A stretch of DNA of 64,000 bases from Escherichia coli. GTDB taxonomy: Bacteria > Pseudomonadota > Gammaproteobacteria > Enterobacterales > Enterobacteriaceae. The notes beneath the pieces are model-generated. The model searched no databases and was not told where the DNA came from. It worked only from the letters and a program-made list of their open reading frames with translations. Location of the stretch: NCBI RefSeq assembly GCF_003334785.1, contig NZ_QOWV01000009.1. The stretch is one strand, 5' to 3'. Shown in pieces: positions 3,063 to 52,930 of the stretch (within the stretch, counting starts at the first letter, position 1; each line of letters starts with the position of its first letter). A program made the position numbers and the translations under genes.

Positions 3063-3144
3063 AGAGCTCTCTCTTAGTTTAATTTCCGCCAGGTAATCAG
3101 ATGACACGACTGTGCTTCACGCCATCTATTAACATGTACGTCAG

Positions 3145-3176
3145 TATATGGGGATGTTTCCCCCACATTCAACGCC
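3145..3176 (-). promoter_or_regulatory. lon sigma-32 (heat-shock) promoter
   Basis: Minus strand reads GGCGTTGAAT (-35-like, consensus CTTGAA) ... CCCCATATA (-10, consensus CCCCATNT) with ~14-bp spacing, ~85 nt upstream of the lon ATG. Confidence 0.7.
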
Positions 3177-3249
3177 GAGAATAGAGGAAAAATTAAAGGG
3201 GAGATAAAATCCCCCCTTTTTGGTTAACTAATTGTATGGGAATGGTTAA

Positions 3250-4524
3250 TTATTCACCAGATGCCTGTTGCGCTTCCGGCTTGCCATAAATCAGCAACGG
3301 TTTGCTTTGACCATCAATTACCGACTCGTCGATAACCACTTTTTCGACGTCTTCCATGGACGGCAGATCGTACATGGTATCGAGCAGTGCGGCTTCTACG
3401 ATGGAACGCAGGCCACGGGCACCGGTTTTACGCGCCATCGCTTTCTTAGCGATAGCATCCAGCGCCTCGTCACGGAATTCCAGATCCACGCCTTCCAGAT
3501 TAAACAGCGCCTGATACTGCTTGGTCAGGGCGTTTTTCGGCTCTTTGAGGATCTGAATCAGAGCTTCTTCGCTCAGTTCATTCAACGTTGCGACAACCGG
3601 CAGACGACCAATAAACTCAGGGATAAGACCAAACTTGATCAGATCTTCCGGTTCAACCTGCGCCAGCAGCTCGCCTTCGCTTGCTTTGTCGGACTTCGCT
3701 TTTACCGTCGCGCCAAAACCAATGCCGGAGCCGGTTTCTACACGGTGGGAAATCACTTTATCCAGACCGGCAAACGCACCGCCACAAATAAACAGGATCT
3801 TAGAGGTATCAACCTGCAAGAATTCCTGCTGCGGATGTTTACGCCCACCTTGCGGTGGAACAGCAGCTACCGTACCTTCGATCAGTTTCAACAGTGCCTG
3901 CTGTACGCCTTCACCGGAAACGTCTCGGGTAATGGACGGGTTGTCTGACTTACGAGAAATCTTGTCGATTTCATCGATGTAGACAATACCACGCTGTGCT
4001 TTCTGGACATCGTAGTCGCATTTCTGCAACAGCTTCTGAATGATGTTTTCAACGTCTTCACCCACATAACCGGCTTCGGTCAGTGTAGTCGCGTCGGCCA
4101 TGGTGAACGGAACATCCAGCAGGCGCGCCAGCGTTTCAGCCAGCAGCGTTTTACCGGAACCGGTCGGACCGATCAGCAGAATGTTACTTTTGCCCAACTC
4201 GACGCCATTGCTGGTATCGCCGTTGCGCAGACGTTTGTAATGGTTGTATACCGCGACCGCCAGCACTTTTTTCGCCTGTTCCTGGCCGATAACGTAATCG
4301 TCCAGGTGGTTGCGAATTTCATGCGGCGTCGGTAGCGCACTGCGTTCACGATGCGGTGCAACTTCTTTAATCTCTTCGCGAATGATGTCGTTACATAAAT
4401 CAACACATTCGTCGCAGATATACACGGATGGACCGGCAATCAGCTTGCGCACTTCATGCTGGCTTTTGCCGCAAAAAGAGCAATACAGCAATTTGCCTGA
4501 GCCATCTTTGCGTTTATCTGTCAT
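3250..4524 (-). CDS. clpX: ClpX ATP-dependent unfoldase (424 aa)
   Basis: ORF track 424 aa [44 protein letters not shown] (zinc-binding N-domain), Walker A GPTGSGKT. Confidence 0.97.
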
Positions 4525-16662: not shown

Positions 16663-16752
16663 TGCCTGCTGCGCTACGCTTATCAGGCCTACAAAGTTTC
16701 TGAATTACAAACCTTTGTAGGCCGAATCAGGCGTTCATGCCGCATCTGACAT
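16663..16752. repeat. REP/BIME element between convergent yajR and yajQ
   Basis: Two REP-like units (GCCTGCTGCGCTACGCTTATCAGGCCTAC and GTAGGCCGAATCAGGCGTTCATGCCGCATCTGACATG) in inverted orientation, including a perfect 11-bp palindrome GGCCTACAAAG...CTTTGTAGGCC. Confidence 0.75.
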
Positions 16753-49468: not shown

Positions 49469-50653
49469 ATGAAAAAAGTCATTTTATCTTTGGCTCTGGG
49501 CACGTTTGGTTTGGGGATGGCCGAATTTGGCATTATGGGCGTGCTCACGGAGCTGGCGCATAACGTAGGAATTTCGATTCCTGCCGCCGGGCATATGATC
49601 TCGTATTATGCACTGGGGGTGGTGGTCGGTGCGCCAATCATCGCACTCTTTTCCAGCCGCTACTCACTCAAACATATCTTGTTGTTTCTGGTGGCGTTGT
49701 GCGTCATTGGCAACGCCATGTTCACGCTCTCTTCGTCTTACCTGATGCTCGCCATTGGTCGGCTGGTATCCGGCTTTCCGCATGGCGCATTTTTTGGCGT
49801 CGGAGCGATCGTGTTATCAAAAATTATCAAACCCGGAAAAGTCACCGCCGCCGTGGCGGGGATGGTTTCCGGGATGACAGTCGCCAATTTGCTGGGCATT
49901 CCGCTGGGAACGTATTTAAGTCAGGAATTTAGCTGGCGTTACACCTTTTTATTGATCGCTGTTTTTAATATTGCGGTGATGGCATCGGTCTATTTTTGGG
50001 TGCCAGATATTCGCGACGAGGCGAAAGGAAATCTGCGCGAACAATTTCACTTTTTGCGCAGCCCGGCCCCGTGGTTAATTTTCGCCGCCACGATGTTTGG
50101 CAACGCAGGTGTGTTTGCCTGGTTCAGCTACGTAAAGCCATACATGATGTTTATTTCCGGTTTTTCGGAAACGGCGATGACCTTTATTATGATGTTAGTT
50201 GGGCTAGGGATGGTGCTGGGAAATATGCTAAGTGGCAGGATTTCAGGACGTTATTCACCACTGCGCATTGCAGCAGTGACTGACTTTATAATTGTACTGG
50301 CACTGCTGATGCTCTTTTTCTGCGGCGGCATGAAAACAACGTCGCTTATTTTTGCTTTTATTTGTTGCGCGGGATTATTTGCCCTTTCAGCACCGCTACA
50401 AATATTGTTACTACAAAACGCCAAAGGCGGAGAGTTATTAGGTGCCGCAGGTGGGCAAATAGCGTTTAACCTCGGTAGCGCCGTCGGCGCATATTGCGGA
50501 GGTATGATGCTGACGCTGGGACTGGCATATAATTACGTGGCGCTGCCTGCCGCCCTGCTTTCGTTTGCTGCGATGTCGTCGTTGCTGCTGTATGGTCGCT
50601 ATAAGCGCCAGCAAGCGGCGGATACTCCGGTGCTGGCGAAACCACTGGGGTAG
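49469..50653 (+). CDS. araJ: AraJ MFS-family transporter (394 aa)
   Basis: ORF track 49385..50653; start placed at ATG 49469 giving MKKVILSLALGTFGLGMAEFGIMGVL... Confidence 0.9.
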   Translation: MKKVILSLALGTFGLGMAEFGIMGVLTELAHNVGISIPAAGHMISYYALGVVVGAPIIALFSSRYSLKHILLFLVALCVIGNAMFTLSSSYLMLAIGRLVSGFPHGAFFGVGAIVLSKIIKPGKVTAAVAGMVSGMTVANLLGIPLGTYLSQEFSWRYTFLLIAVFNIAVMASVYFWVPDIRDEAKGNLREQFHFLRSPAPWLIFAATMFGNAGVFAWFSYVKPYMMFISGFSETAMTFIMMLVGLGMVLGNMLSGRISGRYSPLRIAAVTDFIIVLALLMLFFCGGMKTTSLIFAFICCAGLFALSAPLQILLLQNAKGGELLGAAGGQIAFNLGSAVGAYCGGMMLTLGLAYNYVALPAALLSFAAMSSLLLYGRYKRQQAADTPVLAKPLG

Positions 50654-50680
50654 GTTATAGTCTCGGTGCTCATTACTTAT

Positions 50681-50905
50681 TGCCGGATGCGGCGTGAACG
50701 CCTTATCCGCCCTACGCGGTTCTGGCACATTTTGCAGGCCTGATAAGACGCGGCAAGCGTCGCATCAGGCATCGGAGCACTTATTGCCGGATGCGGCGTG
50801 AACGCCTTATCCGGCCTACGGTTCTGGCACCTTTTGTAGGCCTGATAAGACGCGGCAAGCGTCGCATCAGGCCTGATAAGACGCGGCAAGCGTCGCATCA
50901 GGCAT
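50681..50905. repeat. BIME cluster (five REP units) between convergent araJ and mak
   Basis: Alternating units TGCCGGATGCGGCGTGAACGCCTTATCCG(C/G)CCTAC and AGGCCTGATAAGACGCGGCAAGCGTCGCATCAGGC; ~100-bp unit tandemly duplicated, last REP present twice in a row. Confidence 0.9.
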
Positions 50906-50928
50906 GATGCGCCAATTGCCTACGTTTT

Positions 50929-51837
50929 TTACTCTTGTGGCCATAACCACGCAGCGCCGCGTACGCCGCTGGAATCACCGTGCTTCGCCTTACGCACCGG
51001 CGTTTCACATTCGCCGCCGAAGACAAATTGTTTAATCAACTGCCCAACCGTTTGATATAAACGGTCTACATTGCTCATCCCGCCCCCCAGGACAATCACA
51101 TCCGGATCGAGAATATTCACGACATGTGCCAGCGATTTTGCCAGCCGCAGCTCGTAGCGACGCAATGCCAGTTCCGCTACCGGATCGCTTTCTTCAACCA
51201 GGCGGATAATTTCACTGCCTTTCAGCGCATGTCCGCTCAAACGACGATAATCCATCGCGAATCCCGTGCCCGAAATAAAGGTTTCAATACAACCTTGTTT
51301 ACCGCAATAACAAGGGACTTCCTCGCGATAACGCAGTTCGTCTTCGTCCATCCACGGTAGCGGATTGTGTCCCCACTCACCTGCCGTGCCATTGCCGCCG
51401 ATATGCGCCCGCCCATTGAATGCCACGCCCGCGCCGCATCCCGTGCCGATAATCACGGCAAATACCGTCTGCGCTCCCGCTGCCGCGCCATCTACTGCTT
51501 CTGAAACCGCCAGACAGTTAGCGTCATTTGCCAGCCGCACTTCCCGCTGCAACCTCGCGCTTAAGTCTTTATCGAATGGCTGACCGTTGAGCCAGGTTGA
51601 ATTGGCATTCTTCACCACACCGGTGTAAGGCGAAATTGAGCCAGGAATGCCCATACCTACCGTTCCGCGCTGCCCCGTCGCCTGCTCCGCCATATCAACC
51701 AACGTGGCGATCGTTTCAATAGTCTGCCGGTAATCATCACGCGGCGTGGGCAGACGATGGCGGTACAACTGCTCCCCTGCATCGCCCAGTGCAATCACTT
51801 CAGTTTTGGTGCCGCCTAAATCGATACCTATACGCAC
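50929..51837 (-). CDS. mak: Fructokinase / manno(fructo)kinase Mak, ROK family (302 aa)
   Basis: ORF track 50929..51975; start placed at the in-frame GTG at 51837 giving (M)[27 protein letters not shown]...; ROK zinc motif CYCGKQGC present. Confidence 0.9.
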
Positions 51838-52890: not shown

Positions 52891-52930
52891 ATGCCGGATG
52901 CGACGCCTGCCGCGTCTTATCCGGCGTACG
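52891..52930. repeat. REP element downstream of rdgC
   Basis: ATGCCGGATGCGACGCCTGCCGCGTCTTATCCGGCGTACG. Confidence 0.75.

Follow-up and report, generated by a model that had tools for sequence, protein, structure and literature searches.

A strain-variable BIME-2 array in the araJ-mak spacer of Escherichia coli and a rare allele with a fifth REP unit

What is the repeated sequence that separates araJ from mak in Escherichia coli, by which steps did it reach its present number of units, and what might it do for the two genes that run into it? The window analysed here, a stretch of DNA of 64,000 nucleotides taken as a whole, belongs to an E. coli chromosome that is very close to K-12. Within it, araJ and mak face each other across a short spacer, as follows.

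49469-50653, + strand: araJ coding sequence, MFS transporter AraJ (NCBIfam NF007498, 765 bits), with stop codon TAG at 50651-50653
50654-50928, no strand: araJ-mak spacer between the convergent genes, 275 bp, the shared 3' region of both transcripts, containing the entire REP array
50929-51837, - strand: mak coding sequence, fructokinase/manno(fructo)kinase (NCBIfam NF007108, 609 bits), with stop codon TAA at 50931-50929

Both gene identities are also backed by the RefSeq annotation of identical or near-identical loci and by a direct check of the codons. The presence of sbcC upstream is a further support for the gene identification. Between the araJ stop codon and the first REP there are 28 nt, and 25 nt separate the last REP from the mak stop codon. 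A 73-aa open reading frame at 50677-50898 (- strand) was considered as a protein-coding sequence and rejected, as it consists wholly of REP sequence and is unannotated in RefSeq records. Taking its identity, a layered origin and a function drawn from its family together, we hold with high confidence that the array is a BIME-2 element in the shared 3' untranslated spacer of the two genes.

Classical REP consensus searches, with a Y consensus of 34 nt and a Z2 consensus of 37 nt, place five REP units between 50682 and 50903, in the order Y1 (+), Z2a (-), Y2 (+), Z2b (-) and Z2c (-). The parts of the array are these.

50675-50872, + strand: Y-linker-Z2-linker tandem repeat with a 102-nt period and a 2-nt indel between the copies; the second unit is missing in two-REP strains such as IAL7254
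50682-50715, + strand: REP Y1, y type, one mismatch to the Y consensus, CCGCCCTAC; hairpin of -14.5 kcal/mol
50716-50733, no strand: tail-to-tail linker 1, 18 nt, GCGGTTCTGGCACATTTT; too short for an IHF site and without one
50734-50770, - strand: REP Z2a, z2 type, one mismatch; GTAG mutated to GCAG on the + strand
50771-50785, no strand: head-to-head linker, 15 nt, ATCGGAGCACTTATT; in B2 strains it is 44 nt long, with the same ATCGGAGCAC start
50786-50819, + strand: REP Y2, y type, no mismatch to the Y consensus
50820-50835, no strand: tail-to-tail linker 2, 16 nt, GGTTCTGGCACCTTTT
50836-50872, - strand: REP Z2b, z2 type, no mismatch, GTAG intact; hairpin of -20.4 kcal/mol, z = -5.4
50867-50903, - strand: REP Z2c, the fifth unit, z2 type, two mismatches; head-to-tail with Z2b, with which it has 6 nt in common; TCAG in the GTAG position
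50904-50924, + strand: right flank ATGATGCGCCAATTGCCTAC, present in all alleles compared; followed by a T6 run at 50925-50930 that overlaps the mak stop codon

No match to either consensus occurred in 100 dinucleotide-preserving shuffles of the window. Together with the Rfam match given below, these searches exclude a misalignment of the y and z2 units. A reading made beforehand from the sequence alone had proposed five REPs of two types in this spacer, and the close matches (0-1 mismatches for Y, 0-2 for Z2) bear this out. The same sequence-only reading had described a two-REP unit of about 100 bp, repeated in tandem at 50678-50772 and 50782-50872 and followed by one more REP, and these coordinates are off by no more than a few bases. 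Tandem Repeats Finder detects a repeat of period 102 at 50675-50872 (1.9 copies, 94% matches) and another of period 31 at 50838-50908 (2.3 copies, 97% matches), and within the longer repeat 50675-50716 pairs with 50779-50820 (98%) and 50717-50770 with 50819-50872 (96%). The alternation of orientation that had been described holds for the first four units only, since Z2c has the same orientation as Z2b and follows it head-to-tail. The GTAG (CTAC) tetranucleotide is intact in Y1, Y2 and Z2b and altered in the other two units; Z2c has no GTAG of its own because its copy starts inside the preceding unit. The right flank beyond it is probably a decayed sixth REP.

Two classes of such composite elements are distinguished in the literature. 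BIME-1 combines y and z1 units around a long L linker that often contains an IHF site, and it is found singly, whereas BIME-2 combines y and z2 units around a short S linker and occurs in tandem copies whose number varies between loci and strains (PMC3333891). The araJ-mak array is built of y and z2 units repeated in tandem, with 16-18 nt in the tail-to-tail linkers and 15 nt in the head-to-head linker, and it is therefore a BIME-2. A check against a published BIME catalogue gave the same answer, as the K-12 allele is entered in Table DS3 of PMC6379681 as 'BIMEs2 410303-410493, 190 bp'. We matched this entry to the locus by its coordinates, using length and spacing: 190 bp is the extent from Y1 to Z2b, and the 2,216 bp that separate it from the single REP at 408277 in K-12 correspond to the spacing found in the window up to the REP downstream of rdgC (52893-52929), after subtraction of the 31 extra bases. 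The spacer query had a median of 31 matches per genome among 5,426 complete E. coli genomes, as is characteristic of a high-copy REP, and the array is extragenic. Half-site scans showed that other REPs also occur in the window.

With the known BIME-2 arrays of K-12, including REP325 (yjdM-yjdN), araD-araA, eco-mqo and sucB-sucC, the araJ-mak array shares alternating y and z2 units, short linkers, a pair in tandem, an extragenic 3' position and a strain-variable copy number. It departs from them in the allele of the window, where one more z2, directly oriented, interrupts the alternation. The element, the behaviour of its class (copy-number polymorphism, targeting by IS1397 and association with gyrase) and the locus itself are already known.

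We surveyed the locus with a 901-base query spanning the spacer against the 5,426 complete genomes and found it in essentially all of them. The span covered by the query differs among genomes: it is 901 bases in those identical to the window, 870 in K-12 MG1655, DH1 and others, about 759-769 in the majority and 894 in B2 strains (CFT073, O25b:H4). From alignment and unit annotation of representatives, these lengths resolve into distinct structural alleles. The five-REP allele of the window has a spacer of 275 bp. The K-12 four-REP allele, found also in the BL21-type strain BLR(DE3), NCTC86, ML35 and HUE1, has one of 244 bp, and the B2-type four-REP allele, with its 44-nt head-to-head linker and more diverged units, one of 268 bp. 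A two-REP allele with a 142-bp spacer, for example in IAL7254, consists of Y1, linker 1, Z2 and the right flank, and there are several further two-REP alleles of 133-138 bp with partly decayed units.

To count these forms we used junction-specific megablast queries, each of which counts one allele and needs an exact seed of 28 nt, so that diverged copies of each allele are undercounted. The K-12-type four-REP form, recognized by its second-unit marker, is present in 1,328 of 5,426 genomes (24%), and the B2-type form, recognized by its long linker, in 1,037 (19%). The K-12-type second unit was counted with the query for the reciprocal 31-nt deletion, in which the Y2 linker is fused to the right flank. 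Both four-REP markers are absent from about 56% of the genomes, a class gauged through an evenly spaced sample of 60 records; a two-REP-sized span was found in 33 of these (55%), which comprise all 33 sampled records without a marker. The head-to-tail junction of Z2b and Z2c, diagnostic of the five-REP form, occurs in 3 of the 5,426 genomes, once in each and only at the araJ-mak locus.

The spacer is thus polymorphic in length, as had been expected from the sequence: strains carry two, four or five REPs, and one form has an IS1397 insertion. REP copy number compared across strains differs, which disposes of the possibility that it is identical in all of them. The ATCGGAGCAC linker start is common to both four-REP forms, and the two-REP forms sit on different flank haplotypes; these observations suggest an old four-REP state with recurrent deletions. 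In the history that we propose, the basic unit would be the Y-Z2 pair, and the second pair, which has a period of 102 nt, is 94% identical and is found in about a quarter of genomes, would have been gained or lost as the repeated units recombined.

The fifth REP adds a second and much shorter layer to this history. On the - strand, the end of the array reads as follows.

50839-50900, - strand: two exact tandem copies of the 31-nt unit TGATGCGACGCTTGCCGCGTCTTATCAGGCC, at 50900->50870 and 50869->50839

Across the duplication the - strand has the order ...CATCATGCC|TGATGCGACGCTTGCCGCGTCTTATCAGGCC|TGATGCGACGCTTGCCGCGTCTTATCAGGCC|TACAAAAGG..., so that TGCC|TGAT delimits the 31-nt copies at their 5' side and GGCC|TAC at their 3' side, with a new junction GGCC|TGAT between them. 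Z2c is absent from K-12, from BL21-type strains and from all but 3 of the 5,426 genomes; the three carriers of the junction are FDAARGOS_1248, LR-64-2 and 200112. In a comparison of 26.4 kb with the spacer at its centre, 2 substitutions separate the window from ML35, a non-carrier, 6 from a K-12 derivative and 3-4 from the carriers. FDAARGOS_1248 and 200112 have the same sequence over this distance, and both are 7 substitutions from LR-64-2. No SNP common to all carriers was found in the 26.4-kb flanks. Over 24.9 kb, many strains with four REPs match the window at about 100% identity, the 31-nt gap excepted, and the duplication must therefore be very recent.

How was the extra copy made? The parental sequence holds the near-repeat AGGCcTGAT / AGGCaTGAT at a spacing of 31 nt. 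We propose that the fifth unit arose when 31 nt of the z2 core were duplicated exactly and in tandem, on a haplotype that otherwise hardly differs from that of four-REP strains, by replication slippage on this near-repeat, which lies at the feet of the palindrome. We infer that slippage is the most likely source of the 31-nt duplication, ahead of the REP-associated transposase RayT (TnpA_REP, also called YafM).

The idea that the duplication is an in vivo footprint of RayT is a good deal less probable and yet deserves to be set out in full. It supposes strand transfer between the type I and type II sites of the z2 iREP on the lagging-strand template: RayT, bound to the adjacent y REP, would cut the iREP at the type I site TGCC|TGAT; after resynthesis it would cut at the type II site GGCC|TAC, and the new 3'-OH would be joined to the first 5'-phosphotyrosine end. 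Such a cycle adds exactly one interval between a type I and a type II site, and the duplicated 31 nt are exactly that interval in the z2 iREP. TGCC|TGAT and GGCC|TAC are the consensus sequences for type I and type II cleavage of iREPs by TnpA_REP in vitro, and type I sites are found in z1 and z2 units and are absent from y units (PMC3333891). Moreover, the order on the - strand is a z2 iREP, a short linker and a GTAG-bearing y REP. In vitro, TnpA_REP bound a substrate of this kind, cut it at two iREP sites and recombined it, giving products with an extra REP, and amplification model B of the same authors predicts such a product (PMC3333891). Judged by the features given for RayT substrates (PMC3333891), the - strand of the array is predicted to qualify, with a GTAG REP that has a stem mismatch and with CC|T sites in the iREP.

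Like REP/RAYT systems and REPINs, the araJ-mak array has units with GTAG/CTAC and the stem mismatch by which TnpA_REP recognizes them, its duplicated segment ends at two mapped iREP cleavage sites, and rayT is present in a carrier genome. Specifically, rayT is intact in LR-64-2, the one of the three carriers that was checked, where its protein has the same accession as in K-12, and the gene is found in 3,575 of the 5,426 genomes. The array lies 160 kb away from the rayT locus (the REPtron). The fifth unit could not recruit RayT itself, because it lacks GTAG.

Several considerations nevertheless weigh against RayT. Slippage on a direct microhomology of 4 nt (8 of 9 nt) yields an identical junction, and because both cleavage sites share GCC|T, the coincidence of the junction with them is no independent evidence for the enzyme. 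The - strand is indeed the lagging-strand template (the GC skew of the + strand is -0.032, and in K-12 the locus maps to about 411 kb in the opposite orientation), but this match had a 50% prior. No gain of a REP through RayT is known from E. coli in vivo. Among the 1,328 genomes that carry the parental allele, the event turns up in just 3, a frequency in keeping with a rare spontaneous slip. In addition, the reciprocal 31-nt deletion, with the Y2 linker fused to the right flank, occurs in none of the 5,426 genomes. Slippage thus remains our preferred account of the fifth unit.

The spacer is predicted to fold strongly on both strands, with -134.5 kcal/mol (z = -7.3) on the + strand and -128 kcal/mol (z = -7.7) on the - strand, each against 200 shuffles. 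Searches of both strands of the spacer found no sigma-70-like promoter and no canonical intrinsic terminator (a GC-rich hairpin with a U-run within 0-2 nt); the T6 run at 50925-50930 is at least 4 nt from the nearest predicted stem. We also considered that the extra copy might free a terminator-like hairpin before T6 and rejected this, as the folds of the five-, four- and two-REP forms all keep the canonical Z2 hairpin. Since these comparative folds gave no allele-specific terminator, the extra Z2 copy probably adds one hairpin at the mak-proximal end and has little or no phenotypic effect. Liang, Rudd and Deutscher (2015) reportedly found that REP-dependent ribosome stalling needs a REP within about 15 nt of the stop codon; at araJ-mak, where these distances are 28 and 25 nt, it is therefore not expected.

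By analogy, both transcripts would run into the array and form stable REP hairpins. These hairpins may impede 3'-to-5' exonucleases and may partly attenuate read-through into the opposing gene, in part through Rho. Such a role at the RNA level is carried over to araJ-mak from other loci. REP325 acts as a partial terminator and mRNA stabilizer, a REP is found in about 30% of convergent gene pairs, in which the expression of both genes is higher, and the effects of REPs are strongly context-dependent (preprint, bioRxiv 10.64898/2026.03.23.713779).

One family of RNA models does recognize the array.

50737-50816, - strand: Y2-linker-Z2a unit, match to Rfam RF02564 (naRNA4), 79.8 bits against a gathering score of 59.5; the only Rfam match above threshold here

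A sub-threshold match to naRNA4 (39.2 bits) covers the right flank at 50870-50942 on the - strand. The naRNA4 model was built on REP325, and its match to the araJ-mak unit is a further likeness between the two arrays. It would be tempting to read this unit as a functional naRNA4-like gene whose RNA binds HU and condenses the nucleoid, given a score above the gathering threshold and given that PMC4550694 proposes a role in HU binding and the nucleoid for REP325 transcripts and states that about 80% of annotated REPs are transcribed. We consider this very unlikely. naRNA4 is the y-z2 unit of the BIME-2 REP325 (PMC4550694), so the match, a homology in sequence and structure at the level of the family only, indicates membership of the repeat unit and no gene; it reflects BIME-2 repeat sequence, and any y-z2 unit is expected to score. 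The spacer is also without a promoter-like site, and deletion or overexpression of REP325/naRNA4 leaves nucleoid volume unchanged, with no enrichment of REP-REP contacts (bioRxiv 10.64898/2026.03.23.713779).

Short tandem palindromes are error-prone in some assemblies, and the fifth REP might on that account be an assembly or sequencing artefact in a repetitive stretch. This is extremely unlikely, since the junction recurs unchanged in three complete genomes that are independent of one another (USA, Ecuador and Mali) in addition to the window, and it spans three flanking haplotypes that are 0-7 substitutions apart in 26 kb.

The proposal that the array is an IHF-binding element of the BIME-1, RIB or RIP type can practically be discarded: REPs in general are frequently named as IHF sites (PMC1525189), but IHF binding is a property of the L linker of BIME-1 (PMC3333891), those elements have z1 units, a long L linker with an IHF site and single copies, and the araJ-mak array has partner units that match z2 at 0-2 mismatches where BIME-1 needs z1, linkers of 16-18 nt and a tandemly repeated pair, is filed as BIME-2 and not BIME-1 in Table DS3 (PMC6379681), and has no match to the IHF core consensus WATCAANNNNTTR in the spacer (50654-50928), the nearest being inside mak at 51045-51057. 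The statement of the sequence-only reading that such arrays bind IHF does not hold here. Its companion statement on gyrase is right for the class and less so for this member. BIME-2 elements are enriched for gyrase cleavage, mostly in the y units. For the K-12 allele of araJ-mak, the published Topo-seq data (PMC6379681) give one cleavage site with Cfx (ciprofloxacin) and none in RifCfx, Micro and Oxo, against about 0.19 expected in 190 bp. This single site in one of four conditions is non-significant by itself, and the locus lies outside the strong gyrase sites. In contrast to the strongly cleaved BIME-2 arrays of sucB-sucC and eco-mqo, with 6-11 sites, the araJ-mak array is shorter (two pairs) and has one. 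As DNA, the array would act as a weak gyrase site.

By analogy with its class, the array would also be a preferred target for the REP-specific element IS1397 and for RayT. IS1397, of the IS3 family, chooses its targets specifically among REPs (PMC1525189). In strain elppa9, whose araJ-mak spacer is of the two-REP kind, the central loop of Z2 is interrupted by a truncated IS1397 flanked by GACGCG and GCAAGCG, and this fits the specificity of the element. The window differs from such targets in having no insertion.

REP/BIME arrays, their copy-number variation, their association with gyrase and their targeting by IS1397 have been known since the 1990s, and this locus matters little alone. It does provide a quantified case, a single BIME-2 locus for which 5,426 genomes yield at least five structural alleles, and it carries a correction, namely that IHF binding should not be ascribed to BIME-2 arrays. 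The araJ-mak spacer is usable as a length marker, and it may fine-tune the 3' ends of araJ and mak. Mildly new is only the rare five-REP allele, whose endpoints coincide with RayT cleavage sites, a testable curiosity. If the RayT reading were true, this allele would be a caught-in-the-act example of local REP multiplication in E. coli. The five-REP allele offers a concrete, testable case for how REPs amplify in vivo.

The right flank of the REP array, at its mak end, ATGATGCGCCAATTGCCTAC (window 50904-50930 region), is conserved and looks like a decayed sixth REP. This flank is also covered by a match to naRNA4, the Rfam family of the REP325 repeat unit, that falls below threshold (39.2 bits, 50870-50942, minus strand). 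A T6 run lies 3' of the flank, sharing bases with the stop codon of mak. Flank and run in combination appear terminator-like, and they did not pass a scan for canonical terminators. Across the whole 64-kb window, the sole Rfam match besides naRNA4 of the array is the small RNA sraA (RF02029), at gathering level (106.7 bits, 3134-3229, plus strand).

An ATG open reading frame of 73 aa, called mechanically at 50677-50898 on the minus strand, lies wholly within the array. We rejected it as a gene, since REP arrays produce spurious frames of this type and none of the RefSeq records compared carries any gene annotation in the araJ-mak spacer.

Other strains carry further alleles of this spacer. In elppa9 (NZ_CP083481.1), a truncated IS1397 of ~965 bp, with ends TGAACTG...CAGTTCA and annotated as an incomplete transposase, occupies positions 3403-4373 of that strain's locus record (L007), inserted in the central loop of a Z2 unit in a two-REP allele. 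In B2-type alleles, the head-to-head linker has 29 additional nt, CGGGGGGTTGCCGCCACTGTGCGCGTTAT, as at 727-755 of the CFT073 locus record (L003), and this segment is present in 1,037 genomes, one copy each.

Scanning the window for REP-like units identified others at these positions:
16679-16692, solitary Z-type tail
24798-24830, weak inverted pair
30885-30967, second pair, Y (plus strand) and Z2 (minus strand)
52893-52929, single REP immediately 3' of rdgC
The rdgC-downstream REP has its counterpart in the entry "BIMEs2 408277-408313" (K-12 coordinates) of a published gyrase Topo-seq table (Table DS3 of PMC6379681).

The gene for the REP-associated protein RayT (TnpA_REP), rayT (yafM), was detected by megablast in just 3,575 of 5,426 complete E. 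coli genomes, with identities forming two bands, one of at least 95% (1,967 records) and one of 90-95% (1,615 records). In about one-third of strains, rayT is absent, diverged or truncated.
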